Part shown: positions 1,763 through 15,938 of the stretch, piece after piece
How positions within the stretch are numbered: position 1 is the first letter of the stretch
How the letters are laid out: each line of letters begins with the position of its first letter
IMG/VR virus record: IMGVR_UViG_3300045988_096302
Strand: one strand, 5' to 3'
DNA: 60,112 nt
From: a virus
Program-made: the position numbers and the translations under genes
Notes under the pieces: generated by a model
Databases searched by the model: none
What the model saw: only the letters and a program-made list of their open reading frames with translations
Told to the model about the DNA's origin: nothing

Positions 1763-2653
1763 ATGAATAAACTTGAAGAGTTTAAGCTCTATGTGTTAAA
1801 GCGTAGAGATGCCTTTGAGCACAAGTACAGAATAGGTAACAAGACTGTGGGAGATCTTTACAGATATGATCTTCCTAACAATCTAAAATACCTTGATGAC
1901 ATGTCTCAAATGTTTATTAGAACACTAAACACAGCTAGAGTACCCCTAAGGGATAAACTACTTACTGTGTATGTTTATCGCTATATAGGTCATGAAAAGT
2001 ATGTCAGAAGATGTACTAATGAACATGATGTAATCACAATACATCAACTAGAGAAGTTAGCAACTAAGCTTAACTCAGCTAAGGCTAAACTTTCTCCTAA
2101 CTACAAGTCTCCTGCTATTCAGGTAATGACTAGAGAGCTTAATAGAGGAGAAAGGTTTCTTGCTTCCTGTGCAGATTTCATTGACAAGCTTCCTGATGAT
2201 CTATTCTATGGATGGAAGTGTAGTGAGATCTATAGATACTATAATAAGAAGTGTGATGTGTATGGACTGAGTAAGTTCACAGCTTATAACCTAGCTACTG
2301 ACCTAGCTTACATTAATGAGCTACACATTGAACTAGACTTTATTAATGGATGCTCACCTAGCATGAGAAAGATGTACCTTGAAATTGTAGAGAAGGATAG
2401 GTTTAATGCACAGGAGTATAAGAAGTTTGCTATTGACTTTATGAAGTGGTATCTAGATCAGCCTTTTGCAGATAGCAAAGAGAGGATCATTACCCCTAAT
2501 GATGTAGGACACATGCTTGTAGCTTACTATAAGCTCACAAGAGGTATGTGCAAGATTAGATACCCTAAGAAGACTAGGGCTAAGGTCAGTGACTTGGTAA
2601 TATCAAGGAGTATGTATGAATTTTATAAAGGTGTACCAAGTGAAACTGATTGA
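1763..2653 (+). CDS. hypothetical protein (296 aa)
   Basis: Long ORF with RBS AAAGGAG 9 nt upstream of the ATG. An upstream ATG at 1759 terminates after 3 codons. Confidence 0.6.
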   Translation: MNKLEEFKLYVLKRRDAFEHKYRIGNKTVGDLYRYDLPNNLKYLDDMSQMFIRTLNTARVPLRDKLLTVYVYRYIGHEKYVRRCTNEHDVITIHQLEKLATKLNSAKAKLSPNYKSPAIQVMTRELNRGERFLASCADFIDKLPDDLFYGWKCSEIYRYYNKKCDVYGLSKFTAYNLATDLAYINELHIELDFINGCSPSMRKMYLEIVEKDRFNAQEYKKFAIDFMKWYLDQPFADSKERIITPNDVGHMLVAYYKLTRGMCKIRYPKKTRAKVSDLVISRSMYEFYKGVPSETD

Positions 2654-2819: not shown

Positions 2820-3111
2820 TATTGAAAAGGTTAAGTTAGCAGAAGAGCCTAAGTCATCATCTGCTAAGGCATCTGATGAGTACATCAAGCTAGAAAGAGA
2901 GTTTGATAAGCTTACTGAAGCAATTAAGCTTTCACATAGCACAAGAGAGAGAAAAGCTATGAGAGCACGAAAAAAGAAGATCCGTGAACAACAGAACCTT
3001 CTTTACTATCAAATGCTTTACTCAGGCTACATTGAGTACACTCAGACTGTGCTAGGGTTATCTACACCACAAGCGCTGTATAAGAGACTTAAGAAGCACA
3101 AGAAAAAATAA
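2809..3111 (+). CDS. small basic protein, possible C-terminal helix-turn-helix regulator
   Basis: ATG at 2809 lies 10 nt after GAGAGGAG (the ORF-track start at 2788 is GTG). The C-terminus TQTVLGLSTPQALYKRLKKHKKK resembles a sigma region-4-type HTH. Confidence 0.45.
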   Translation: MNVDIEKVKLAEEPKSSSAKASDEYIKLEREFDKLTEAIKLSHSTRERKAMRARKKKIREQQNLLYYQMLYSGYIEYTQTVLGLSTPQALYKRLKKHKKK

Positions 3112-3133
3112 AGAGAGCAATTAAGCTCTCTTT
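3110..3133. terminator. bidirectional rho-independent terminator between the convergent arms
   Basis: AAAGAGAGC-aattaa-GCTCTCTTT, a perfect 9-bp stem. It is flanked by an A-run upstream and ttatttt downstream, so there is a T-run on both strands. Confidence 0.8.
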
Positions 3134-3979
3134 TTATTTTGGACAATTACAGTCATCCTTAGGAAGTTCTGTAAGTTTAAGACATTCAGGAGTATCTTGT
3201 GCATCCATGATAGGAGTGTACTCTAGCTTGAATTGGTGTACACGGAATACACCTGAAGAAGAGTTAGCAGGCTCTACTCTCACCTTGACGTGCTGTCCAG
3301 CAGGTACAATAATACTATCAGACATTTCCATAGCACCATCTGAGATACCAGTCATCTGCCAGTGTACTCCACGGTTCTTTCTAAGGTCTTCAGTATACTG
3401 TTCTCCTGAGTGGTATACTACAATCTCCATTGTGTTATCTTGTGCTGGATTGAGTGTAGTACCATCTGCACACCATCTGATGTAAACACGGTACTTACGG
3501 TCAGTTTGCTTTCTTCTACCATCATCAGACTCACCAGCTACAACTCCTGTAGTAGAGTCCATGTAGAGGTCTAAGTCATAACCATCTGTGATAGGATGAT
3601 AGAAGTCAGCAGATGATACAGCAGAGTTTCTAGCATAGTTTACTTGAACAGCACCTACATCACCCATCTTAGATAGGTATTCAGCCATACACTGAACCAT
3701 ATCCCACAATGCACAGATGTTTTGAATGTAGTGGTTAAGTTGACAAGCCAGCTTCTTCATGAATGAACTGAAGAACTTGGGATTGTAGCATTTCTGACTC
3801 TCAGCCATACATGCAAACCGTCCTACACCCTTGTTATTCTCATCTACTAGTCGTTGACAATCTGCAACAGGAATTTCATCACAGTCACATTCATCATACC
3901 AACAGCGATCCTTAGGATTCTCACCATAACTAGTGAATGTTGCTTCATTCAGTCTAGTTGTTTTATCATCAATAGCCAT
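3134..3979 (-). CDS. fibre/receptor-binding-like protein with Cys-rich N-terminal module (paralog family)
   Basis: ATG overlaps the upstream stop (TAATG). N-terminal CWYDECDCD...ACQLNHYIQNICALWDMVQC resembles the N-termini of 7888, 8451 and 9743. Last gene of the - arm. Confidence 0.5.
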   Translation of the reverse strand: MAIDDKTTRLNEATFTSYGENPKDRCWYDECDCDEIPVADCQRLVDENNKGVGRFACMAESQKCYNPKFFSSFMKKLACQLNHYIQNICALWDMVQCMAEYLSKMGDVGAVQVNYARNSAVSSADFYHPITDGYDLDLYMDSTTGVVAGESDDGRRKQTDRKYRVYIRWCADGTTLNPAQDNTMEIVVYHSGEQYTEDLRKNRGVHWQMTGISDGAMEMSDSIIVPAGQHVKVRVEPANSSSGVFRVHQFKLEYTPIMDAQDTPECLKLTELPKDDCNCPK

Positions 3980-5385
3980 TAGTCACCAATCTTTCCTTGT
4001 GCTTTCCACTTACCACCCTTACGAATACGTGAAGGTGAGTAGTTTTCTTTACCAGTATCAGTAGCATAGATTTCAGCATTAGGTTTAGTATCCCAAAAGT
4101 TTTGGTTAGCTGTCCTTCTAATCTTCATCCACTGTCTTGTAGTGTTAAGAGACTTCCAAGCATTAGACTTTCTAATAGCCCATGGTCTAATCTTAGCATT
4201 TTCTGTGTAGTACACAGTAATGACATTGTTACCTTCAACCACAGTGTGAGTATAGGTAGTCTTCTCAGGGGCATAGTTAGTGATAGCAGGAGCATTGTAG
4301 TTCACATTGCTACCAATAGTCTGATTACTTAGAGTTACATCCCCACGTAGTGGTTGATTATTAGCCTTATTAAGATGCTTAACAATAACATTAGCAGTAG
4401 TGGGAATCTTCTCATACCTGAAGGTGTAGTTTCCATTACCAGTTACTCTAGGTACATTGATAGGGTTCTGACCTGGTACAAGTCTATAACCTTGGATGCT
4501 AGGAGGATCTTTCCTGAAAGGATCTCCATGAGTCACAGGAGTGTAACTTTGAGTCTGAATCTCTCTTCCTGTGTCCTTATCAATGAACTTAACAATCTGT
4601 CCATAGATAGGGTTGTATCTAAAGATAAGTTCCTTAGTTTGTCCTGAAGGAATCCATGTAATCTGATTCCTATCTCCAATTAGCTTATATGTTGCCTTAT
4701 AAATCTCAGGAGCAGTGTGTGACTGACTTGCATCACCAGGTACTTTCTTAGTCTCAGTACTAAGTACAGCTCCCGTAACATTGTCTACATACTTGATTAC
4801 AAGTGTACCTTCTTTAGGAGCTTGAGGAACATTAAGGATGCTTGTATTAGGCACAGTCAAACTGAATGACACAGTAGCAGTTGTTGGACTAAACTGCCAT
4901 TGGTCAATAGTAGTGGCTACATCACCTCTTTGTTCATTAACCTTTGATGAGATCTCAACATCATTAATATTTAACTGTTTATTGATTGTCTCAGTCCAGT
5001 TATTACCAAAGGCTGGGTCATAGGACTTATTGAAGATCATCCCTTGTGGAGTGTTAATTCCATATGAGGCATTACCAAAAGCTCCTGAAATTGTAAGTCC
5101 TGGTGTCTTAGTATAGGACACTGACTTGATTACAGCTCTTGTGTGTCTAGCTTTAACTTTAGTACCTTCTACCACAAGGTCATAGTAGATACTACCTTCA
5201 GTGTTTACATAACCAACAGCAATTTGACCACCATCAACAGAAGGAACAAGCATAGGGTTTTCAATCCTAAAACTGTTCCCACTGATATAGGTCTTAGTAC
5301 CACTGTCAGTAGAGTAGATATTAAGGCTTAGGGCTTGCCTTACCTTAGTAATCTGTTCCTGATTAAGTGTAGCTTGATCTGCCAT
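3979..5385 (-). CDS. tail fibre-like protein with three MucBP-like repeats
   Basis: RBS AGGAGG. The three repeats are LVIKYVDNVTGAVL...ELIFRYNP, IVKFIDKDTGREI...QGYRLV...YTFRYEK and VIVKHLNKANNQPL...NVITVYYTEN. Confidence 0.55.
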   Translation of the reverse strand: MADQATLNQEQITKVRQALSLNIYSTDSGTKTYISGNSFRIENPMLVPSVDGGQIAVGYVNTEGSIYYDLVVEGTKVKARHTRAVIKSVSYTKTPGLTISGAFGNASYGINTPQGMIFNKSYDPAFGNNWTETINKQLNINDVEISSKVNEQRGDVATTIDQWQFSPTTATVSFSLTVPNTSILNVPQAPKEGTLVIKYVDNVTGAVLSTETKKVPGDASQSHTAPEIYKATYKLIGDRNQITWIPSGQTKELIFRYNPIYGQIVKFIDKDTGREIQTQSYTPVTHGDPFRKDPPSIQGYRLVPGQNPINVPRVTGNGNYTFRYEKIPTTANVIVKHLNKANNQPLRGDVTLSNQTIGSNVNYNAPAITNYAPEKTTYTHTVVEGNNVITVYYTENAKIRPWAIRKSNAWKSLNTTRQWMKIRRTANQNFWDTKPNAEIYATDTGKENYSPSRIRKGGKWKAQGKIGD

Positions 5386-6356
5386 TAACTAATACCTCCT
5401 GCAAGGTCATTCTCAGTCTTGCCATTGTTAGTTCTAATGAATGCACTACCATCCACAGTTCCACCAAAGAGGTTAATATTACCTGTGGCAATGTGTCTAT
5501 CAGGGTACAGATTACCCTCAAAGATAGTTCCACCTGTTTGTTTCCATGCTCCTGAACCTTTAAGATCCTGTAGAAGTTTCTCAAAAGCACCTTTGAGTTT
5601 ATTGTACTCATTTTTAAGTGTAGTAAACTCTTCAGGTGACACATATTGAGGCAGAGTTACCTTATTACCTCCACTAAGTGATAACTCTCTTGTATTAGCA
5701 TTGAATGTTAAATTTTTCCACAGACTAGTACTGTAATTACCAATACCCTGAACTTTGACATTGTTTCCACTTACTTCTATGACTTTCCAAATACCTCTGT
5801 TGATAGTATTTTGGTCTGAATAGAAGTCTTCTACTGTATCCCCTACTTTAATACCATCAGGGTTCCTAAAGTTAGTCTTTTGTACAGTACGAGTGTTATT
5901 TGTATCAGCAGTACCAGGAATATCTCCATCATAGAACCTATGGATACTTTGTGAAGGAAGAGTAACTGAGTTACCACCACTAATTGATAATGTATTATTG
6001 TTAACTGTAAGAGTTTGCTTATCATTATCAGGTCTAGCTTCTAGATCACTAACTCTTTTCTTAAGCGCTGTGTCATCATAAGGCACAGAAGTGTTAGGCA
6101 CAGGAAGTTCAACTTCACCTCCATCATTAGATAGGATCAGCTTATTCCCTTGCTTAGAGATTGTCTGCTTATCATTAGGTAGAGTAACTGAGTTGCCATT
6201 ACTAATAGATAAGTTCCTATTACCTGCATTAAAGGTTAAAGTCTGCTTATCATTATCAGGCTTGTTCTCTAACGCTGTGATTCTAGTCTTCAGAGGAGTA
6301 TCATCATAGGATGTAGTAGTAGGCTTATCTGTTATTTTATATACTGTTTTTGACAT
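5385..6356 (-). CDS. tail fibre protein with YDDTxLKxR and DKQTLTxxxNxLSISxGNSVTLP repeats
   Basis: Internal duplicated motifs. Its C-terminal about 60 aa are homologous to the C-terminus of 7888..8442. Confidence 0.55.
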   Translation of the reverse strand: MSKTVYKITDKPTTTSYDDTPLKTRITALENKPDNDKQTLTFNAGNRNLSISNGNSVTLPNDKQTISKQGNKLILSNDGGEVELPVPNTSVPYDDTALKKRVSDLEARPDNDKQTLTVNNNTLSISGGNSVTLPSQSIHRFYDGDIPGTADTNNTRTVQKTNFRNPDGIKVGDTVEDFYSDQNTINRGIWKVIEVSGNNVKVQGIGNYSTSLWKNLTFNANTRELSLSGGNKVTLPQYVSPEEFTTLKNEYNKLKGAFEKLLQDLKGSGAWKQTGGTIFEGNLYPDRHIATGNINLFGGTVDGSAFIRTNNGKTENDLAGGIS

Positions 6357-7888
6357 TAGTTTAACCTCGGTAAGTAATAGAATTTGTTGTCAGTAGGGTT
6401 CTTCAATACAACAGTACCTTGAACAGATTGCATGAAGAATTTTGCGTTCTTAATAGTCATATTAAGTCTACCAATAACTTCTTCATTCTTCTTAACTTCA
6501 ATCTCTATAGGTTCTTCTGACTCTAATTCTTCTTTAGTTATGAAGTGAGTGTAGTGTTCTGCTTTAGACTCAGTAATTATAGTCCATATAATCTTTGGAA
6601 TAAACCTGAATACTACTTTGTTGTTACTATTCCATATTCCTAATATACCTACTTCAAGTTTCAATTCTTGTGGCTGTATAAAACTAGCAGATCCAGATAT
6701 TCCTTGACTACTTGTAGACAAAACACTTAGAGTAACAGACTCACTAGAGAAGCTTTTATGTAAGTTAAACTCTCCATAGTCATATGATCCTGCATAGTCT
6801 AGTATTAAGCCTGCCTCTAATATAGTATTACGACGAATTGTACCATCATTGTCAATACTATATAATTGGTTATCTAGTGTATCATAACCAAAGTCAGGTT
6901 TAAAAATTGTCCTGTTCTCAGGAGTCAATTTTTTGAAAAGCCCTCCATTTTTTGTATTATAGGGAACTTGTCTAGAAGTATCCGTAGCCATCTCAATATG
7001 AAATGTACCATCAGCATCTAGGATTAGACCATTACCCTTAGCTTTGTATACTTTAGGCTCTACATTAGCAGGTAGTTCAATAGAGTTACCATTAGAAATG
7101 CTAAGAGTATTACCATTAAGTGTGAGAGTTTGATTATCACTAGGTAAAGTAACTGAATTACCTTCTGAGATTGATAAAACTCTATCAGATAAAGTTAAAG
7201 ATTGTTTAGGGTGATTATAAGTTAGGTCATTCACACCATTTAGAGTAACAGTGTTACCATCCACAGAAGCTACTTTAAACATGCCAATATTATATAGTTC
7301 TTTATTCCAATAGTGATCTACTACTGTATCACCTACTTTAATAGTATCAGCATTTACAAGCTTATCCTTTGTGACACGTACATTCTGTGAAGTACCATTA
7401 CCTGAGATATCACCTTTAGCAAAGAAAGTATTTACTCCAGTAGGTGTCACAGGCTTGTCTTCTAAGGCTTTAATTCTAGCCTTCAATGCAGTATCATCAT
7501 AGGCTAAGGCTACAGTGTCTTTATCCTCAAACTCTACCTCTTTAATAGTACCATCTACAAGTGTGTAGGTAAGTTTTACCTTATTACCATTTCTTGATAC
7601 ATTCACAGAAGAGATAAAGTTATCTGTTTTACCCTCTAAGGCTTTTAGTCTATTAATCACAGCGGTATCATCATAAGTAACTCCACCACCTTGACCATTC
7701 ACTTTAATCCATCTAGTTCTATCAGGAGAAAGAATAAACAGATCTCCATTAGGAAGAAGATACATGTGATCTCTATCTCCCATAAACACATCAGGTAGTT
7801 TATCCACAGGGGCTACCCAAGTGTCCTCAGCAGGCATACACTGAGTGCACCATGTGTTAGGGTTTCCACTACAAGTTGTACATCCCAT
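6356..7888 (-). CDS. tail fibre / receptor-binding-like protein (510 aa)
   Basis: RBS AGGAGG. N-terminal MGCTTCSGNPNTWCTQC. It shares an about 80-aa module (YDDTAVINRLKALEGKTDNF...AYDDTALKARIKALE) with 13139..14104. Confidence 0.55.
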   Translation of the reverse strand: MGCTTCSGNPNTWCTQCMPAEDTWVAPVDKLPDVFMGDRDHMYLLPNGDLFILSPDRTRWIKVNGQGGGVTYDDTAVINRLKALEGKTDNFISSVNVSRNGNKVKLTYTLVDGTIKEVEFEDKDTVALAYDDTALKARIKALEDKPVTPTGVNTFFAKGDISGNGTSQNVRVTKDKLVNADTIKVGDTVVDHYWNKELYNIGMFKVASVDGNTVTLNGVNDLTYNHPKQSLTLSDRVLSISEGNSVTLPSDNQTLTLNGNTLSISNGNSIELPANVEPKVYKAKGNGLILDADGTFHIEMATDTSRQVPYNTKNGGLFKKLTPENRTIFKPDFGYDTLDNQLYSIDNDGTIRRNTILEAGLILDYAGSYDYGEFNLHKSFSSESVTLSVLSTSSQGISGSASFIQPQELKLEVGILGIWNSNNKVVFRFIPKIIWTIITESKAEHYTHFITKEELESEEPIEIEVKKNEEVIGRLNMTIKNAKFFMQSVQGTVVLKNPTDNKFYYLPRLN

Positions 7889-8442
7889 TAGTTAATACCT
7901 CCTGCCAAGTCATTTTCTGTTTTACCATTATTAGTACGGATGAAGAAGTCACTATCCACTGTGTTAGAGAACAAGTTGATATTACCTGTTGCAATATTTC
8001 TTCTAGGCACAAAGTCTCCTTCAAGACCTCCTTGCCAAGCTCCACTAGCAGTTAGGTTGTTAATGATCTTCATCAAAGCATTTTTAAGTCTAGTATTCTC
8101 AGCTCTAAGATCAGCATCATTATAAGCAGGAGAAGGTGTTGGAATAGTACCTGTAAATGAGATAACTCCATCATTTGAGATACTGATATCCTTACCTGCC
8201 TTGTATGTTTTACCTCCTGAGCTATTATCCATCAACCAGCACAGCTGTGAGGTGATGTTCTTATTAAAACACCACTGTGAATACATAGCTTTAGATGTTT
8301 GCTCAGGTAGGTCACAAAGAGTTGTATCCCTTAGCACAAGGGAATGAAGTTTAATTCTGTCATCATTTTGCTTTTTAAGAGATGCACAGGCTGTTGATCC
8401 TGGTACAATCTCTTCACATTGACAGTTAATACAATCTGACAT
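7888..8442 (-). CDS. Cys-rich-N-terminus fibre-associated protein (184 aa)
   Basis: N-terminal MSDCINCQCEE...WCFNKNITSQLCW. C-terminal IATGNINLF...FIRTNNGKTENDLAGGIN is shared with 5385..6356. Confidence 0.5.
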   Translation of the reverse strand: MSDCINCQCEEIVPGSTACASLKKQNDDRIKLHSLVLRDTTLCDLPEQTSKAMYSQWCFNKNITSQLCWLMDNSSGGKTYKAGKDISISNDGVISFTGTIPTPSPAYNDADLRAENTRLKNALMKIINNLTASGAWQGGLEGDFVPRRNIATGNINLFSNTVDSDFFIRTNNGKTENDLAGGIN

Positions 8443-8450
8443 AATTTCTC

Positions 8451-9734
8451 CTATTTATCATCAATAAAGCAATCAAACTTGCAATCCATAAGGTCACATC
8501 CACCTTTAATGAGAGGAATAGTTTCTACTTTCTTCTCAGGTTTAGGAGGAATTGTAGGCTTCTTAGGAGGTTGCTCATTAAATGGTTTAGGTTTGGTAGC
8601 ATTGTTCACAGGGGGTTGTTCAGTGAATGGAGGGAAAGGTGCTCTAATAATCTGCTCTCTTGTGTATACATTTTGGTGTCTATCCCCTGGATTACTTCCT
8701 CTTACCTCTACTTTCAAGTGAGTAAAGTTAGCAGGTAAGTTAGTGAATGTCTTATTCCACTTGATAGTTGATAGATGCCAGTTAGGCTCATAAGCAAGCT
8801 TTTGTGTATCAGCATGCTTAGCAAGTAGGATATCCTTTTGGACTACTGAGTAGTTGTTTCCTCCATCAGTAGAAGCATACACATCAAAGTACCAATCATA
8901 AGTACCACCATACTGAACATACCATCCTTGTAGTCTACCACCAACACCAGCCTCATAGGAGTATCCTAAGAGGTTTAATTGGATATCTACAATAGTTCCT
9001 TCATTATTCTTAGAAGTGAACCCAATACCTTGACCATAACCATTTCTGTGAGCTTCACTTAGGTCAATACCTTGGACACTACCATTAGGTGATCCACCCA
9101 TAGCAACATCTAGAGGTGCACCATTACGTTGGAATGTACCCCAAGCTTCTTGCCACTTAGTAGCTCCTCCTTGTTGGTTGTTACCTGCTTCATACTCACG
9201 TTTTCTTCTCTCATAATCAGCTTTTCTAGCATTGTAAGAAGCAAGAGCAGAAGCATAGTTAGAGTTACTATTATTATATGCTTGTAAGGCTCTTTCATAT
9301 TCAGCCTTTCTAGCATTATAACCATTTAGACTAGCCTGATAATCAGACTCAAGTCTTCTCTTCTCAGCTTCCCAATTTGATTGGTCAGGAGATGGTTTAC
9401 TAGCCTGATCTGAGTTGTACACACCAATAAATCTATTAACACTTTCAATTCTCTCAGCTAAACAGTGCTGTACTTCACAAACCTTCTGTGCTTTACGCTG
9501 TAAGCACTTCATACGTTTAATTATATCACAGATGATCTCAATAATGTTCTTGATATTACACCATATTCTGAAGAACCCATGTGCTGTATTTTCTTTTACT
9601 TTACACTCTTCTCCATTAGCAATAGCATCACCAGCCAACTTCACAGAGTCAGCTAGGTCATGCTTCATCTTCTCACATTCATGAGCTTTATAGAACTTTA
9701 TCCTGCATCTGCAATTAGGACAATACTCAAACAT
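8451..9734 (-). CDS. Cys-rich-N-terminus protein with Tyr-heptad helix, globular domain and Pro-rich segment
   Basis: RBS AGGAGG. N-terminal CPNCRC...WCNIKNIIEIICDIIKRMKC. Tyr at residues 132, 139, ... 181 (every 7th residue). PFPPFTEQPPVNNATKPKPFNEQPPKKPTIPPKPEKK lies near the C-terminus. Confidence 0.5.
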   Translation of the reverse strand: MFEYCPNCRCRIKFYKAHECEKMKHDLADSVKLAGDAIANGEECKVKENTAHGFFRIWCNIKNIIEIICDIIKRMKCLQRKAQKVCEVQHCLAERIESVNRFIGVYNSDQASKPSPDQSNWEAEKRRLESDYQASLNGYNARKAEYERALQAYNNSNSNYASALASYNARKADYERRKREYEAGNNQQGGATKWQEAWGTFQRNGAPLDVAMGGSPNGSVQGIDLSEAHRNGYGQGIGFTSKNNEGTIVDIQLNLLGYSYEAGVGGRLQGWYVQYGGTYDWYFDVYASTDGGNNYSVVQKDILLAKHADTQKLAYEPNWHLSTIKWNKTFTNLPANFTHLKVEVRGSNPGDRHQNVYTREQIIRAPFPPFTEQPPVNNATKPKPFNEQPPKKPTIPPKPEKKVETIPLIKGGCDLMDCKFDCFIDDK

Positions 9735-9742
9735 AGTGCCTC

Positions 9743-10618
9743 CTAGCAGTTATCACAGTCAATAACACATCCTTCAACTTTAGGAAGAGGTGAGTTGTTA
9801 TTTACATAGGTAGCTCTCACATCACTTGATGTAGGGTCATAATCCCACTGGTCAAGTGTCTTGAATAGCAAGATATCTCCTGTGCTACCTCCTTGAGGTC
9901 TAAGGACTGTTTCCTTACCAATAGAGATAGATCCAGGCTTATCAGTGAAGCTTGATCCTGCTTGATAAGATTTAGTCCATACAGTTCTTCCATTAGTATC
10001 TAGGATAGAGAAAGTAGCATTGTTTCCATAGCTTCCTCCATCACCAATGTATTTAACACCATCAAAGTCAACTCTAGATACATGGGCTTTAACAGATCCA
10101 TCTTCATTCATAGTGTACATGTGAGATACCTTACCAGTGATAGTACCTCTACCTACTTCTCTACCTGCATAAACCATATTCCACACAATAGCAAAGTCAC
10201 CATTTTGTTGAACAGTCACAGATGTGAAAGTGTCTCCATATCCAGCAGAATTGGCAGATGTACCTACACCTTTCATACCAAAGACAACATTCTCAAGCAT
10301 TTTTCCTTTAATGTGTTCCACAAGACCTGTGATTCTTTCATCCTGACACTTAGCAATAGAGCACAGCTTGTCTACCTTAGACTCTAAGCACTCTAGCTTA
10401 TTAAGGATGTAGCATAGCTGGTTAATGATATTCTTAAGAACACACCACACACCATAAAAGCCTCTTCTGATAGCCTCAGGTAGATTACACCATTCAGCCT
10501 TTAGAATAGCTCTCATTTTAGGTCTAATTTGAAGGTCATTAAGCTCTTGTAGCTTGGTACAGTCTCCAATACCTACATTCTCACAGGAGCAGTCCTTTTG
10601 TTTACAAATGTCTTCCAT
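9743..10618 (-). CDS. Cys-rich-N-terminus protein with beta-rich C-terminal domain (291 aa)
   Basis: RBS GGAGGA. N-terminal CKQKDCSC...WCVLKNIINQLCYILNKLEC belongs to the same family as 8451..9734. Confidence 0.5.
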   Translation of the reverse strand: MEDICKQKDCSCENVGIGDCTKLQELNDLQIRPKMRAILKAEWCNLPEAIRRGFYGVWCVLKNIINQLCYILNKLECLESKVDKLCSIAKCQDERITGLVEHIKGKMLENVVFGMKGVGTSANSAGYGDTFTSVTVQQNGDFAIVWNMVYAGREVGRGTITGKVSHMYTMNEDGSVKAHVSRVDFDGVKYIGDGGSYGNNATFSILDTNGRTVWTKSYQAGSSFTDKPGSISIGKETVLRPQGGSTGDILLFKTLDQWDYDPTSSDVRATYVNNNSPLPKVEGCVIDCDNC

Positions 10619-10627
10619 AGTTCCTCC

Positions 10628-10660
10628 AATAAAAATAGGGAGGGGATATACCCCACCCCC
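10628..10660 (-). terminator. rho-independent terminator immediately after the endolysin
   Basis: On the - strand, the GC-rich hairpin GGGGGTGGGGtatatCCCCTCCC is followed by TATTTTTATT. The RBS of the next gene follows directly. Confidence 0.6.
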
Positions 10661-12919
10661 TTAACCAAACAATAAGTGGTTTAAGTTCCAAGCAGAAAGC
10701 CAGATCTCTCCTGAAGTTCTAAGCTTGAATTTTCTCCAATAGTAGTTTCCATCTCCTACACCACCTACACCAGTATCACCAGTTGCAGTTTGGTCAAACA
10801 CAAAGTAGTCACCTACATGTGTCACTTGATTAGGAAGTTTAACACCATTCTTATCTGTGATAATGATATCCTCTACAGCAATACCATTATCTGTCCAGTT
10901 AAAGGCTACTGGTACAAGCTCTTTGCTGTATACTTGCCACAAACCATTGACATATTTAAGGTCATCTACTCGGTAAGCATGTTGCATCTTACCAGGAGCA
11001 GAAGGTTTAGGTGTAGCTTTAGAAGGAGTTACATATTCAGCACCTCTAGCCATAGCTACAAGTCTATCAATGTCAATTCCTCCTGGACAGTTACCTACAA
11101 TAGTAGTTCTACCATGTTGACGAATTAAGATTAAGCCTGATGTAACAGATACACAAGAAACCAATCTGTTTTGTTTTCTTTGTGCAGATTTAGCTAGAGT
11201 ACCTTTAGATGTCACACTTCTAGTAGCATTTGTGAAGTAAAGTCTGTTACCTTCTGTAGATGTTCTACTACCTGTGTTGTGGAGAGAAGCCACAGCTTGT
11301 ACCACATCAATGTTTTGTGATAGAGATGAGGAATAATCATTACCTGCTCTACATCCATCAAAATCTAAGATGTAGTCAAGGAAAAGTTTAGCTTGTCTAC
11401 TAGACATATTAAGAAATTCCCAAGAGAATTTTTTGTTGTCTAGATATTGTTCCACTTCTTCAACTTCTTCAGCTCCATAAATACGGAATGAGTAAGTACC
11501 ATCTTTCTTCTCAGCAAAGGTGTATTCTTTACCTAGCTCATCAAGGATATCATTAAGTAGCTCTACCTTTCTATCCTTCTTCACATGGAACTCAATACCG
11601 AAAGGTTTCTTTTCAGAAGTTCTGCTGTCATACATATAATGACCATCAGCTTGGACAGCTACAAGGTAACGTATGAAAGTATCTGATATAGGTAAACCTT
11701 CTGCTTCATAACTTCCTGCATTAGGGAATACTAGAGTACCTTTAGTAGAGAACATGTCTTTAGCTTCACTAACTTTGTAAGCTGTCCCTGATTGAGATTT
11801 CCACAACATTCTATGGTCAGAAGTGACTTCAACATCTCTGAAGAACCATGTATCCTTAGTATGAGGCTCTACTTTGTTGTACACTGTGTCAAAGATAATG
11901 CTTCCATCATCTAATCTGTATGTAGCAATTTCATCACCTACTTGGATATCTTTTAAGCTTACCCAACCTTGTTTAGTAAGGAGTTCAGTACCTTCAACAG
12001 GTAAACACGCTGTAGATGATACTTCACCGTGCTTCAGAATGTGTTGTCTATCAATAGGAATGTTGTAGCGTTCACAGATATCACGAATGAGCTTAGCAGA
12101 GTTTCTATAAGTTTCCTCAGCAATAGTCCATGTAGGAGCACCAGTATTATTCAAATGCTCAATACCAATAGAGCGTTGGTTCATTGGATAGTTTCCTGCA
12201 TGGTAAGCAACATAGTTCTCACCAACACATCCCCAGATCTTATCAGGAGTTACCTGGTAGTGAGCAGATGTCCCATGACCTGAAGAAACGTACCAAGTAT
12301 GTCTAGCCACAGCATCATTGGTAGTTGCATTGTGGTGAATAACAATTCTGTCGATCTTAACACGGTTTCCATCAGAGTTCATTGGGTTAGGGTCTACACC
12401 AGTAATAAGTCCTGAGTAGATTTCACCATTAATATTTTTAGCAGGTACAGCCACAGCAGTGTTTCCTCCTTGTGTTTTAGCTTGTGTAGCCTTCTTCTTA
12501 AGTCTGAAGGCTGTAGGATAAGTAGCAGAGTAAGGAAGCTTCACAAGGTTTGCAGAAGATCCTCCTGCTGGGTTAGTAAGTTGGCTTCCTTGGTTTTGAC
12601 CTAAGAACCATCCAAAACCTCCACCAGCATCACTATCAAACAATGCTACGTGAGATACAGGAGTCCATCCAGCTACCTCTTTAAAAACAGCCACATCTCC
12701 TTCTTCCATGATCTCTACTTCATCAAAGTACTTTAAGATACCATTAGTCCGTCTTTGTTCCCAAAGATCTTTTACGTAGCCTGACACAGTGCAGTTAGCA
12801 AAAGGTACTCCATTTTCTCTACACCATTGTGCATAAAAATCCCAGCATTGCCAGCCATAAGCACCATCTACATCTGTACCCTTATTCATCCACTTGGACT
12901 TAAAGGTTTTGTAGTCCAT
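10661..12919 (-). CDS. endolysin precursor: CHAP + Amidase_2 (interrupted by an intein) + SH3b-type cell-wall-binding domain
   Basis: CHAP: GWQCWDF...SHVALF. Amidase_2: IVIHHNAT...AYHAG...IGIEH...HILKHGEVSSTA / CPGG. C-terminal YYWRKFKLRTSGEIWLSAWNLNHL is SH3_5-like. The holin lies directly upstream. Confidence 0.9.
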   Translation of the reverse strand: MDYKTFKSKWMNKGTDVDGAYGWQCWDFYAQWCRENGVPFANCTVSGYVKDLWEQRRTNGILKYFDEVEIMEEGDVAVFKEVAGWTPVSHVALFDSDAGGGFGWFLGQNQGSQLTNPAGGSSANLVKLPYSATYPTAFRLKKKATQAKTQGGNTAVAVPAKNINGEIYSGLITGVDPNPMNSDGNRVKIDRIVIHHNATTNDAVARHTWYVSSGHGTSAHYQVTPDKIWGCVGENYVAYHAGNYPMNQRSIGIEHLNNTGAPTWTIAEETYRNSAKLIRDICERYNIPIDRQHILKHGEVSSTACLPVEGTELLTKQGWVSLKDIQVGDEIATYRLDDGSIIFDTVYNKVEPHTKDTWFFRDVEVTSDHRMLWKSQSGTAYKVSEAKDMFSTKGTLVFPNAGSYEAEGLPISDTFIRYLVAVQADGHYMYDSRTSEKKPFGIEFHVKKDRKVELLNDILDELGKEYTFAEKKDGTYSFRIYGAEEVEEVEQYLDNKKFSWEFLNMSSRQAKLFLDYILDFDGCRAGNDYSSSLSQNIDVVQAVASLHNTGSRTSTEGNRLYFTNATRSVTSKGTLAKSAQRKQNRLVSCVSVTSGLILIRQHGRTTIVGNCPGGIDIDRLVAMARGAEYVTPSKATPKPSAPGKMQHAYRVDDLKYVNGLWQVYSKELVPVAFNWTDNGIAVEDIIITDKNGVKLPNQVTHVGDYFVFDQTATGDTGVGGVGDGNYYWRKFKLRTSGEIWLSAWNLNHLLFG
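11090..12007 (-). mobile_element. 306-aa intein with LAGLIDADG homing-endonuclease core, inside the endolysin
   Basis: Block A is CLPVEGTELLT (Cys1 codon at 12005..12007) and block B is VTSDHRML. The LAGLIDADG motifs are LVAVQADGHY and ILDFDGCRAG. The C-terminus is ILIRQHGRTTIVGN followed by Cys+1 (Asn codon at 11090..11092). Removing it restores H-x7-C...CPGG. Confidence 0.85.
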
Positions 12920-12921
12920 GT

Positions 12922-13128
12922 TTACTCTCCTTGAGATTCATTATATTTTTTGCTTGAGATACCTAGCACAGTACCAGTGAAAGTGGTAAGTAATGCTAAA
13001 GTACCTGTGATAGCAGTTGAGTCAAATTTGTAGAGTGCTCCTAGCCCTGTAATCAAAGTGATTAAGGCTGGTGCAACTACAGTAACAAGCTTTTTGTATA
13101 AGTCATATTGTTTATTTGTTAAGTTCAT
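12922..13128 (-). CDS. holin (68 aa, two predicted TM helices)
   Basis: RBS AAGGAGG. Hydrophobic segments VVAPALITLITGLGALY and GTLALLTTFTGTVLGI with a charged C-terminus. It lies immediately upstream of the endolysin. Confidence 0.7.
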   Translation of the reverse strand: MNLTNKQYDLYKKLVTVVAPALITLITGLGALYKFDSTAITGTLALLTTFTGTVLGISSKKYNESQGE

Positions 13129-13138
13129 TTAGTCCTCC

Positions 13139-14104
13139 TTATTTCTTAAAGATACCTGGAATATTGATAATAATTCTCTTATTGAAGATGTTAGGGTTAG
13201 CTGTTAGAGACATCCTAATAGACCTACTGTTAGGATCAACCCATATAGAAGTATCCACATCTCCTACCCAAACCTGAGACTCAATAAGTGTTACTGGCAC
13301 AGGTGCATCATTAGGTAGTGTAGCCACAATAGTACTCTTAGCCACAGGAGACATAACCTTCATATCTACTTTAAGAATACCAACACCAGTAGAGCTTGAG
13401 TAAGTTAGTGTAATTCTAGGAGCATTAGGTCCTTCAAAGTCTCCTTCTTTGACCTTAGTCTTGTCTGTGAAAGTACCCTTATACACTGTAAGATCTGTAG
13501 CTTTATCCTCTTGATCTTTGACAAGCTTGTCTACTTCTTGCTTAGTATAAGTTTCAGCTTTCTTATAGAATTTGCCTAAAGCTTCATCTAGGTTCACATT
13601 GTAAGTAGTTGTAGAATCTGCTTCAGATTTAGTTACTACAACACCTTCAGTGTCACTAGTAACAACAAACTCTTTACCTACACCTACTGGGAGAGTCACA
13701 GAGTTTCCATTAGAGATGGATAGTTCATTTCCTGTGAGTGTAAGTGTTTGTTTATCACTATCTTCTTTATCCTCTAAAGCTGTAACCCTAGCTTTTAAGG
13801 CACTGTCATCATACACTGTGTCCTTATCTTCTTTTGCTTCTAAAGCTTTAACTCTCTCTTTGAGAGCAGTGTCATCATAAGCAATAGTAACAGTGTCCTT
13901 GTCATCAAACTCTACTTCACTAGAAGTTCCATCAACCCTAGTGTATTTGAGCTTAACTTTGTTACCTTCTCTAGACACAGTAACATCACTCACAAAATTG
14001 TCAGTCTTACCTTCTAAGGCTTTAATCCTATTGAGTACTTCTGTGTCATCATAGGTAGACCCTCCCTGATTTAGACAGCTAGGGTCAATTACTATCTTTA
14101 CCAT
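13139..14104 (-). CDS. fibre/receptor-binding-like protein upstream of the lysis cassette
   Basis: ATG at 14104 lies 7 nt after GAGGAG (the ORF-track start at 14110 is TTG). It shares the YDDTEVLNRIKALEGKTDNF... module and a DKQTLTLTGNELSISNGNSVTLP unit with the post-lysin fibre genes. Confidence 0.55.
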   Translation of the reverse strand: MVKIVIDPSCLNQGGSTYDDTEVLNRIKALEGKTDNFVSDVTVSREGNKVKLKYTRVDGTSSEVEFDDKDTVTIAYDDTALKERVKALEAKEDKDTVYDDSALKARVTALEDKEDSDKQTLTLTGNELSISNGNSVTLPVGVGKEFVVTSDTEGVVVTKSEADSTTTYNVNLDEALGKFYKKAETYTKQEVDKLVKDQEDKATDLTVYKGTFTDKTKVKEGDFEGPNAPRITLTYSSSTGVGILKVDMKVMSPVAKSTIVATLPNDAPVPVTLIESQVWVGDVDTSIWVDPNSRSIRMSLTANPNIFNKRIIINIPGIFKK

Positions 14105-14426
14105 TGGCAATCTCCTCTTCTACATGCCTTCTCATCTTCTCATTAAGACCATGAATGTAATGGTTTCCACCAAGGTCATTAAAGTATTCCTTCACAAGAG
14201 GTTCAGTCATATCCCACTTCTCTTGCCATGTAAACTCAGTAGAGTTATAGATGTTAAGATACTCTGAGCGTAAGCTAGCCCGTTTAGCACCCTTAGATAG
14301 CTCTACAAGCTGGTGTCTCTTGTGGTTAAGCCAAGCTACCCCACAACCGCAAGCTGTGGTCACAAAGAGTGTTATTCCTGAGATCACAGCTTGGTTTTCA
14401 AGGAGTTTTACAATTAATCTATCCAT
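14085..14426 (-). CDS. membrane protein (one TM), possible second holin/accessory lysis protein
   Basis: RBS GGAG. Contains the TM segment ISGITLFVTTACGCGVAWL. Confidence 0.35.
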   Translation of the reverse strand: MDRLIVKLLENQAVISGITLFVTTACGCGVAWLNHKRHQLVELSKGAKRASLRSEYLNIYNSTEFTWQEKWDMTEPLVKEYFNDLGGNHYIHGLNEKMRRHVEEEIANGKDSN

Positions 14427-14435
14427 TTAGCTCTC

Positions 14436-15938
14436 CTATAGTGTTTCAATGACAAAAGTATTGACAGGTTTATCTTTCTCAATAACCTCACCATTAGGTT
14501 TTGTTATCTTAATGTGAGAAGTGAAGATTGAAGTTCCTAGGTCTCTAGGAGAAAGTGAGTCTCCTATATGTTTAAGTTGAGTAATCTTGTATTCAACTTT
14601 ATATTTACTACTATCAGGTCTACCTTCATTTAGTCTGTCCTCATATTCTTTTCTTGTAGTTTCTTCAAACTGTTTGATAACACTTTCTGTGATTGCTTCT
14701 CCTTTATAGTTAAGTATTGTTAAGGTATTACCATCCATATTACCTACACCAAAGTTTTCTATTGAGACTAGCACTCCATTAAGGACTTCTTCAGGAGCTT
14801 CAGGTACAGCAGGTTCTTCTTGAGGAGCTTCTTCTGTGTGAGGTACATTATAAGTTTGCTCTGAAACTACACCATTCAGAGTAGTTCTTACATTCAATAC
14901 ATAGTTAGTCTTACCACTCAATACTTCTGAACCTTTTTCATACTTAGGTCCTTCAAGCACAGCTTCCACAGTAGTTCCTTCAGGTAACTTAGCCTTCAAG
15001 TCATTGATAATCTTATCTTCAAAGGCTCTCTTATCATCATTAGATACTTCAGGAACTTCAACTACTTGACCATCTTTAGCAATAATCTTAGAGAACTTAT
15101 CTTCTACTCTAGGAAGAGCCTCTAACAAGTCAATATTAGTTTCAGTAGTAGTACCAATACTCATAGGTTCAGACTGATAAACATCACCATTAGGTTTAGT
15201 GATCTTCACAACCTTAGTATAGAGAGGTGCACCTGTAGCTTTATCTCCTACATTATCACCAGGAATTTTATTGACTAATACTTCCACAGTATAGTCTTTA
15301 AGCTCAGGAATATCTCCTACTTTATCTGTGATCTCTTTCTTGTAAGCTTCAATATCCTCAAGAGGAGCATCACCAATTAAGGTAATAGTGTTGTTTTGAT
15401 TAACATAATAATTACCTAAAGTAGTATTAGTACTTAACTTACCTGACACAATAGTATCCAACTCTTCATTAGTAAGCACAGGTGTTGGAACAGGCTCAGG
15501 CTGTGGTTCAGGAGTAGGTTTATGTTCTTCAGGTATATTAGAGTTTTCTGTGCTAGAAGAAGCAGATTCAGATGTAGATACTGAAGTACTTTCACTAGTT
15601 GTAGTACTTTCTGTAGTTGACTCACTCACAGAAGTGGATTCAGCAGAAGTGCTCTCTGAAGTTGATTCAGAAGTAGATGCTTGACTTTCTGAGGTAGAGT
15701 TACTTTCACTAGTAGATTCTGACACAGAAGTGCTTTCAGAAACAGATGCAGAAACACTTCCACTTTGTGACTCAGGTTTTTTATCTTCCTCAGAAGATTC
15801 ACCACATTTAACAACAATTGTTTGTTCACACTTGGACTCTAGCATTTCACAAGTGGCTTTAGGAATAGGGCTAAAACCCTCATAAGTTGGATAGATAACT
15901 CCACAGAGCTTATCTTCTTCAGCTAATTTATAAGCCAT
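14436..15938 (-). CDS. structural protein with Ser/Thr/Glu-rich repeat tract and Pro-rich linkers (500 aa)
   Basis: RBS GGAG. Residues 57-130 are almost pure S/T/E (SESTSVSESTSESNSTSES...). The KITKPNG(D/E)V module is duplicated. Confidence 0.55.
   Translation of the reverse strand: MAYKLAEEDKLCGVIYPTYEGFSPIPKATCEMLESKCEQTIVVKCGESSEEDKKPESQSGSVSASVSESTSVSESTSESNSTSESQASTSESTSESTSAESTSVSESTTESTTTSESTSVSTSESASSSTENSNIPEEHKPTPEPQPEPVPTPVLTNEELDTIVSGKLSTNTTLGNYYVNQNNTITLIGDAPLEDIEAYKKEITDKVGDIPELKDYTVEVLVNKIPGDNVGDKATGAPLYTKVVKITKPNGDVYQSEPMSIGTTTETNIDLLEALPRVEDKFSKIIAKDGQVVEVPEVSNDDKRAFEDKIINDLKAKLPEGTTVEAVLEGPKYEKGSEVLSGKTNYVLNVRTTLNGVVSEQTYNVPHTEEAPQEEPAVPEAPEEVLNGVLVSIENFGVGNMDGNTLTILNYKGEAITESVIKQFEETTRKEYEDRLNEGRPDSSKYKVEYKITQLKHIGDSLSPRDLGTSIFTSHIKITKPNGEVIEKDKPVNTFVIETL
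15549..15770 (-). repeat. coding low-complexity (S-E-S-T)n tract
   Basis: About 74 codons of Ser/Thr/Glu with an irregular STSES periodicity. Confidence 0.85.

Follow-up and report, generated by a model that had tools for sequence, protein, structure and literature searches.

A phage-encoded protein with tyrosine heptads and a proline-rich arm that probably forms an antigen I/II-type hairpin stalk on a Cys-latched anchor

The subject of this analysis is a minus-strand gene at positions 8451-9734 of a 60,112-nucleotide stretch of viral DNA (IMG/VR record IMGVR_UViG_3300045988_096302), which in its entirety is called the window here and which, from its gene content, looks like the whole genome of a siphovirus of about 60 kb. 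The open reading frame was confirmed, and its product, the target, has 427 residues. We conclude, with a probability of about 0.7, that the target carries an α-helix/polyproline II (PPII) hairpin of the kind found in streptococcal antigen I/II (AgI/II) adhesins, approximately 100 Å long, which projects a binding head from a Cys-latched anchor. The chain would begin in a Cys-rich helical anchor (residues 1-112), ascend as a 68-residue α-helix bearing one narrow Tyr/Leu stripe (the A arm, ~100 Å), fold into a β-sandwich head of ~175 residues, and return as a Pro-rich, PPII-like strand (the P arm) lying antiparallel on the Tyr stripe. A CxxxxCxxxC tail would then clamp onto Cys 91, 86 and 77 of the anchor. 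Stalk and head would thus form a hairpin inserted into the anchor, probably monomeric and constructed like the A-V-P stalk of streptococcal AgI/II and GbpC, from whose genes the stalk was most likely taken, with the V domain swapped for a different phage binding domain. A reading of the window from sequence alone had proposed an A-head-P stalk of this type; in our judgement that proposal is largely supported, mostly by comparative evidence, namely co-variation of arm lengths, matched Cys counts, V domains in relatives, helix matches and a confidently predicted P arm. The parts of the gene are as follows.

8451..9734, minus strand: whole gene, 427-residue stalked adhesin-like protein (anchor, A arm, head, P arm, Cys latch)
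9399..9734, minus strand: N-terminal Cys-rich helical anchor, residues 1-112, assigned by similarity to neighbouring genes
9186..9389, minus strand: A arm, predicted single long α-helix, residues 116-183, with Tyr at every seventh residue, assigned by Tyr spacing and AlphaFold2
8649..9167, minus strand: head, predicted β-rich globular domain, residues ~190-362, from AlphaFold2 strands 193-358
8520..8639, minus strand: P arm, putative Pro-rich return strand, residues 366-405, with 12-13 Pro, from composition, model confidence and length co-variation
8469..8498, minus strand: putative C-terminal latch CDLMDCKFDC (C413, C418, C422), from Cys-count matching across the family

The tyrosine periodicity first noticed in the sequence was borne out exactly: Tyr is found at residues 132, 139, 146, 153, 160, 167, 174 and 181, within nucleotides 9192..9341. 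This perfect i+7 chain is not explained by chance, because 20,000 random placements of the 22 Tyr of the protein gave no chain longer than five, and the exact probability of eight Tyr at i+7 in a 55-residue segment is 5e-9. The i+4 positions alternate L/K/L/N/L/K/K, giving YxxxLxxY units; Ala is the commonest residue of the A region (12/69), and the helix contains an internal 28-residue repeat (residues 131-158 and 159-186). The claimed Gly/aromatic-rich domain of ~180 residues is present at residues ~187-365. The Pro-rich segment PFPPFTEQPPVNNATKPKPFNEQPPKKPTIPPKPEKK is also present, at residues 366-402, although its upper coordinate of 8642 was one codon too far and it occupies nucleotides 8529..8639. 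It is built from a 15-residue tandem duplication (residues 369-398, PFTEQPPVNNATKPK / PFNEQPPKKPTIPPK), so that both arms bear matched internal duplications, of 28 residues in the helix and 15 in the Pro arm. The anchor holds ten Cys within residues 1-91 (positions 5, 8, 10, 20, 44, 59, 69, 77, 86 and 91), and the chain ends 22 residues past the P arm.

If an α-helix (1.5 Å per residue) and a PPII strand (3.1 Å per residue) span the same distance, insertions and deletions in the two arms are expected at a ratio of 2:1. Orthologues of the target, 56-100% identical and located on viral contigs of 48-62 kb, allowed this to be examined. IMG/VR, Logan and ENA supplied 34 distinct combinations of orthologous arm sequences, in which arm spans were measured from one fixed sequence anchor to another. 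All of these combinations retain the Tyr register; helix insertions and deletions are multiples of seven, and in some orthologues one Tyr is replaced by His. Three span classes are seen in the lineage:

Class 1: helix side 74-75 residues, Pro side 60 residues
Class 2: helix side 68 residues, Pro side 56-57 residues
Class 3: helix side 61 residues, Pro side 53 residues

It can be seen that a deletion of one heptad pairs with the loss of 3-4 Pro-arm residues, and a deletion of two heptads (14 residues) with the loss of seven. The lineage of the long-stalk relative P0072 showed no length variation.

The same relationship extends to more distant relatives. A profile search of 1.84 billion representative proteins, followed by Pfam scans, identified a family whose members combine a Cys-rich N-terminal domain, a Tyr-heptad helix, a Pro-rich arm and a C-terminal Cys motif, and which vary in head and stalk length. 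We call it the phage Cys-latched anchor family, a name coined here in the absence of a published one. Members with V-domain heads include:

P0072 and P0132: A arm 169 residues, P arm 90 residues, BspA_v head
P0079 and P0133: A arm 150 residues, P arm 74-76 residues, BspA_v head
P0050, P0058 and P0059: A arm 72-78 residues, P arm 30-31 residues, GbpC head (PF08363, E 5e-11 to 4e-24)
P0134: A arm 56 residues, P arm 23 residues, GbpC head (PF08363, E 2e-38)
Window neighbour 9743-10618 and its kin: A arm 27-31 residues, P arm 6-8 residues, BspA_v head

In a set of 21 family proteins that bear four or more types of head, A arms measure 19-169 residues and P arms 5-90. Regression of P-arm on A-arm length gave a slope of 0.59 ± 0.03 and r = 0.98, for arm boundaries set by eye and for related sequences that are hence not independent data points; when collapsed to ten length classes, r was 0.975 and Spearman's coefficient 0.99. 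In the long stalks of P0072 and P0079 the aromatic residues stay at multiples of seven across ~110-140 residues, and Pro in the P arms of both shows autocorrelation maxima at lags 3, 11 and 14.

The heads of these relatives bear directly on the origin of the stalk. Genuine AgI/II V domains lie between the Tyr-heptad helix and the Pro arm in proteins that share the anchor: BspA_v (PF18220) is matched with E values down to 1e-23, and P0072, a complete anchor-A-BspA_v-P protein, has a head that matches the BspA_V structure 5DZ8 in the PDB with E=1.6e-8. The sequence-only reading had left it open whether the architecture was convergent or acquired, and we consider acquisition from AgI/II-like genes likelier than convergence. 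An independent origin in phages, which would make the AgI/II likeness purely analogous, would fit a target head unrelated to V domains, an anchor and Cys latch with no AgI/II counterpart, and helix-AgI/II matches that fall below significance and may reflect periodic composition. It would leave unexplained the true GbpC and BspA_v V domains placed exactly between helix and Pro arm in the same anchor family, the score of family member P0009, which passes the Pfam gathering threshold for Adhesin_P1_N (PF18652; 27.7 against 27.1 bits), and the match of the family profile to P0087, an authentic AgI/II protein, within its A region (E=2.3e-4; domains Adhesin_P1_N, GbpC, AgI_II_C2, Antigen_C and LPXTG). 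We therefore regard convergence as improbable.

The anchor itself is common to four genes of the window, the target and three paralogues:

9743..10618, minus strand: paralogue 1, anchor, arms of 27 and 7 residues, BspA_v head (PF18220, E=1.3e-13), latch CVIDCDNC
7888..8442, minus strand: paralogue 2, 184 residues, partial anchor lacking Cys 77/86/91, no return arm and no latch, C-terminus matching phrog_17155
3134..3979, minus strand: paralogue 3, 281 residues, divergent anchor after a 22-residue N-terminal extension, unrelated head, C-terminal ECLKLTELPKDDCNC latch

BLASTP relates the target anchor to that of paralogue 1 with 29% identity and E=4e-15, and anchor similarity gave E=5e-8 for paralogue 2 and E=3e-7 for paralogue 3. 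The shared element is an N-terminal CxxCxC...WC...C helical domain in which C5, C8, C10 and C59 are invariant in the alignment. AlphaFold2 predicts helices at residues 17-39 and 44-112 with a predicted local distance difference test score (pLDDT) of ~55-65. The anchor has no Pfam relative, and its profile returned only generic helical bundles from the PDB.

Closure of the chain is indicated by its cysteines. When Cys were counted in the third anchor helix (equivalents of C77, C86 and C91) and in the tail, with an extra Cys at the residue-70 equivalent set aside, the two numbers agreed in 22 of the 24 curated proteins (0/0, 1/1, 2/2 or 3/3), the target being 3/3. Losses are matched in position: P0059 lacks both the C86 equivalent and the middle tail Cys, and P0080 and P0086 lack both the C77 equivalent and the last tail Cys. 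Both Cys sets are absent from the 184-residue paralogue, which has no return arm. The matched counts and position-matched losses indicate that the chain returns to its base, and the pattern implies antiparallel pairs C91-C413, C86-C418 and C77-C422, which may be disulfides or shared metal ligands.

Natural variants of the layout were also found. P0070 (120 residues) consists of anchor and Cys latch only, and in P0017 (189 residues), a single member on a 2.3-kb contig, a target-type helix base is joined directly to a Pro-arm base; these 'headless' proteins could be real minimal forms or artefacts of assembly or deletion. P0009 (L001 1374-3161) has the permuted order A-head-P-anchor, with a Tyr-heptad helix (13 in-phase Tyr and one 11-residue skip), a target-type head, a Pro arm, and a C-terminal anchor at residues 467-556 (E=1e-6 against the window anchor); a stalk-less BspA_v paralogue follows it. 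Taken with the Cys counts, the headless and permuted variants suggest that stalk and head together act as a hairpin that is either inserted into the anchor or fused to it.

AlphaFold2 was run on the target as a monomer, both at full length and for residues 113-412, with the following mean and regional pLDDT values and predicted template-modelling (pTM) scores:

Full length: mean pLDDT 76.9, pTM 0.47, helix 116-183 at 91-93, P arm at 86-90
Residues 113-412: mean pLDDT 86.7, pTM 0.62, helix 116-183 at 93-96, P arm at 82-93

The Ala-rich segment with its Tyr heptads is thus predicted as an α-helix at residues 116-183 (pLDDT 91-96), as the sequence had suggested. The head is modelled with strands between residues 193 and 358, mostly at pLDDT 82-95. 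The P arm has no regular secondary structure by DSSP despite its high pLDDT, and a run of ~40 confidently placed residues without regular structure is, as modelled, unlike a free linker.

These results bear on whether the heptads instead mark the core of a trimer. Phage fibres are usually trimers, which counts against a monomeric stalk, and the perfect heptad periodicity, the fibre-type repeats in neighbouring genes and the restriction of the AlphaFold2 models to a monomer all leave room for a parallel homotrimeric coiled coil, with the Pro segment as a spacer or lying in the trimer grooves. Each heptad, however, has one consistently hydrophobic position: with Tyr at a, the i+3 position (d) is S/R/A and i+4 is L/K/N, so that no a/d core is formed. 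A free spacer need not scale 1:2 with the helix and would not be expected to reach pLDDT 82-93, and the V domains carried by relatives are monomeric in AgI/II, GbpC and BspA. Such a fibre therefore seems unlikely to us; a trimer of hairpins is possible.

Several further results weigh against the hairpin stalk. The hand-set boundaries and related sequences behind the arm-length regression do so; its slope of 0.59 also exceeds the ideal 0.48, and P0045 and P0046 depart from the trend, each pairing a long 'A' span with a short P arm. The trend nevertheless extends over a tenfold difference in length and four or more kinds of head. The Cys rule has two exceptions, P0045 and the 281-residue paralogue of the window (3134-3979; 1 against 3). 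Foldseek, run against 350,542 PDB chains, ranked 3ipk_A (A3VP1 of Streptococcus mutans AgI/II) first for both models, with matches that are not significant (full length, E = 3e-3 and template-modelling (TM) score 0.18; residues 113-412, E = 0.09 and TM 0.13). Since the shorter model gave no better match to 3IPK, Foldseek cannot be used as proof; the AlphaFold-type prediction that the sequence-only reading had called for gave a confident helix and P arm, together with a first-ranked yet non-significant AgI/II structure. At the sequence level the helix resembles AgI/II weakly and in a periodic manner (E 0.03-3), a likeness for which composition alone could account. Adhesin_P1_N matched residues 118-181 of the target with 15.2 bits (E=0.028), under its cut-off of 27.1, and a search of the PDB with the 71-residue helix returned four matches at E<=10, three of which are AgI/II-family helices with Tyr in register (P1 6TZL, GbpC 5UQZ at E=0.15, and AgI/II 3IOX/3IPK), none significant. 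The Pfam A-repeat model did not match the target, the whole protein gave no match among PDB sequences at E<=10, and PHROGs contains no family for it. The head has no Pfam match, no PDB sequence match and no fold relative. Finally, the genes around the target follow a holin, an endolysin and a terminator-like hairpin, which is an unusual place for structural genes.

The 'lectin-like V domain' that had been envisaged for the centre of the protein was accordingly detected neither by sequence nor by fold. A diverged V domain was considered and dropped, since hhalign gave 0.6% probability against BspA_v heads and the PDB and Pfam searches were negative; to judge from these comparisons, the head belongs to no described family. 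It also forms the N-terminus of many proteins of ~250 residues, one of which is encoded in podovirus contigs of ~15 kb between collar/adaptor genes and the tail-knob gene, in what we term the appendage locus. This placement leads us to view the head as a phage binding module that has taken the place of the V domain on the target stalk; its ligand is probably a cell-surface or matrix glycan.

The position of the head homologues, together with the operon-like cluster that the target shares with fibre-repeat proteins, supports a role on the virion, and the target is probably an adhesion or receptor-binding protein of an uncultivated siphovirus of ~60 kb. The gene order of the window is tape-measure protein, Dit, Tal, tail lysins, fibre-repeat proteins, holin-like gene, endolysin and adhesin cluster. 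The cluster is tight and runs from 10618 down to 3134, through the BspA_v paralogue, the target, the 184-residue paralogue, two fibre-repeat proteins, a MucBP protein and the fourth anchor-bearing gene. The earlier description of the target as a 'phage fibre-module protein' needs qualifying to this extent: the gene lies downstream of the holin and endolysin genes, in a cluster of fibre-like and adhesin-like genes.

That position, beyond the terminator-like hairpin at 10641-10661, would also suit products that are released at lysis and coat host cells or biofilm matrix with no role in adsorption, as would the BspA_v, MucBP and Collagen_bind domains, which are typical of bacterial surface adhesins. 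PblA and PblB of the Streptococcus mitis phage SM1 are reportedly accessory adhesins of this sort. The chances of such a role for the target appear slim: it has no signal peptide, LPXTG motif or choline-binding module, its cluster includes classic fibre-repeat proteins, its head homologues and the phrog_17155/7782 modules occur in a podovirus appendage locus, the phage looks virulent, and terminator-like sites are no commoner in the window than in shuffled sequence. The hairpin at 10641-10661 separates the endolysin stop, which it immediately follows, from the adhesin cluster, and a second, bidirectional hairpin at 3110-3133 lies where the cluster meets convergent plus-strand genes; together they prompt one to ask how the cluster is transcribed, and when.

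Other features of the window are listed below.

12922-13128: holin-like gene, 68 residues with two hydrophobic segments, just upstream of the endolysin
10661-12919, minus strand: endolysin, 752 residues, with a CHAP-like N-terminus, Amidase_2 and ZoocinA_TRD
6356-7888, minus strand: 510-residue fibre-repeat protein with a distinct N-terminal Cys motif, MGCTTCSGNPNTWCTQC
3979-5385, minus strand: 468-residue protein with a weakly BspA_v-like N-terminus (BLASTP E=0.001 against its neighbour), MucBP repeats and a phrog_7782 end
14436-15938, minus strand: 500-residue protein with a Ser/Thr/Glu-rich low-complexity tract (SESTSESTS...) followed by a Pro/Glu linker
49282-50829, plus strand: 515-residue protein with Big_8 and Collagen_bind domains (Cna/MSCRAMM-type), in the replication module and far from the tail genes
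1763-2653, plus strand: match to the helical domain of 5-hydroxymethyldeoxyuridine (5-hmdU) DNA kinase (PF18723, 27.2 bits)

Sequence modules recur among these proteins. The repeats DDTALKxRIKALE and LSISNGNSVTLP are common to the products of 6356-7888, 13139-14110 and 5385-6356. The phrog_7782 motif PWAIRKS..WKSL...IRKGGKW, which ends the 468-residue protein, also ends podovirus proteins that bear the head domain of the target, and looks like a second kind of attachment module, located at the C-terminus. A module ending in ...FIRTNNGKTENDLAGGI (phrog_17155/7547) terminates the products of 7888-8442 and 5385-6356, both on the minus strand, and the podovirus appendage-locus protein L045 3362-4246; it may be a third interchangeable module, for attachment or with a chaperone-like role. 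The Ser-rich tract of the 14436-15938 product, which has no family match, is reminiscent of serine-rich repeat adhesins. The endolysin is interrupted at residues ~307-620 by an intein-like insert that starts CLPVEGTELL and has weak Hint and LAGLIDADG matches. The match at 1763-2653 suggests thymidine hypermodification of the phage DNA.

The phage encodes a primase-helicase and its own DNA polymerase A, no integrase turned up in the open reading frames scanned, and on this gene content the virus appears virulent. Its nearest isolated phages, those of the Lactococcus P087 group, have terminases 26% identical to its own. Among GTDB genomes the endolysin gave a 63% segment in Streptococcus danieliae, a 36% match in a Clostridia metagenome-assembled genome, and nothing else. 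The host is probably a Streptococcus of the human microbiome. Homologues of the target were found only in metagenomic viral contigs: the isolated-phage reference collection yielded no match, either by megablast of 6300-13000 or by tblastn of the target and the BspA_v paralogue, and no relative was found in GTDB genomes with the family alignment as query, so that there is no prophage copy and no direct host assignment. A viral-contig scan with P0050 as query gave no match, and further word-indexed homologue searches returned mostly short paralogues of the 184-residue type, or five matches only.

If the stalk is as proposed, an α-helix/PPII hybrid hitherto taken to be characteristic of streptococcal surface adhesins of the AgI/II type would be a portable display device of tunable length, varying about tenfold with both arms in step, on which GbpC, BspA_v and unrelated heads are exchanged above a Cys-latched anchor. 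Natural variants that differ in stalk length or by indels provide a test of the 2:1 rule by which the two arms pack. The family also suggests that genes have flowed between the adhesins of hosts and the adhesion proteins of phages, in a human microbiome that is probably oral; it could serve as a simple scaffold for phage host-range engineering or surface display, and it gives a working function to a gene cluster that had no PHROG or Pfam annotation. More speculatively, and with considerable doubt on our part, phages of human-associated (probably oral) streptococci might have captured host adhesin hardware, comprising the AgI/II-type α/PPII stalk, GbpC and BspA V domains, MucBP and collagen-binding domains, and display it on virions via the Cys-latched anchor for co-localisation in the niche and not for primary receptor recognition. 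Virions would then adhere to the surfaces colonised by the host, be they salivary pellicle, glucan or mucin.

Among phage systems, the carbohydrate-binding modules of lactococcal and streptococcal siphophages and the Ig-like domains of T4 Hoc are virion-displayed binding domains beyond the core receptor-binding protein, whose heads are swapped modularly and which are displayed on β-rich or trimeric scaffolds. To our knowledge, an α-helix/PPII hairpin stalk with a Cys-latched anchor is undescribed for phage accessory adhesion modules. The papers listed when GbpC and AgI/II were searched together with phage gave no account of phage use of an A-P stalk, and a review of the polymer-adhesin family nowhere mentions phage; the sole prior trace found of a phage link is the automatic UniProt name of A0A8S5QVQ2, a 99%-identical copy of the target entered as 'Glucan-binding protein C [Siphoviridae sp. 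ctzSN25]'.

In AgI/II the stalk is an α-helix intertwined with a PPII helix over 155 Å and stabilised in part by proline-aromatic contacts (PMC3707005). S. mutans AgI/II (P1/SpaP, A3-V-P1, 3IPK/3IOX) resembles the target in its YxxxLxxY helix, globular head and Pro-rich return strand, and in an arm ratio of about two helix residues per Pro-arm residue. The AgI/II stalk carries three 82/39-residue repeats, whereas that of the target would measure ~100 Å with two short repeat units; the target is also phage-encoded, and has as its base a Cys-rich phage anchor with a Cys latch. GbpC is a minimal version of the family, in which coils flank a single polymer-adhesin domain and there are no immunoglobulin (Ig) domains (PMC7726212). 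The S. mutans GbpC helix (5UQZ/6CAM) aligns with the Tyr heptads of the target, and the relatives P0050, P0058, P0059 and P0134 bear the PF08363 head; GbpC is, however, a secreted, LPXTG-anchored bacterial protein, to which the target head has no detectable similarity. The V domain of BspA from Group B Streptococcus (5DZ8, PF18220) is shared with the paralogue at 9743-10618 and with P0072, P0079 and P0133, so that in the window the BspA_v head sits on a stalk-less paralogue, whereas the stalked target carries another head. A Pfam scan at E<=1 detected no C1-C3 Ig domains (AgI_II_C2, Antigen_C) in the target; there is likewise no YSIRK_signal or Gram_pos_anchor Pfam match that would indicate a signal peptide or LPXTG anchor, and its N-terminus, MFEYCPNCRCRIKFYKAHECEK, has no hydrophobic stretch. 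Because V domain, C-domains, signal peptide and LPXTG are all missing, the target is best classified as no member of the AgI/II family, and as a phage protein that would use the A-x-P stalk module of that family.

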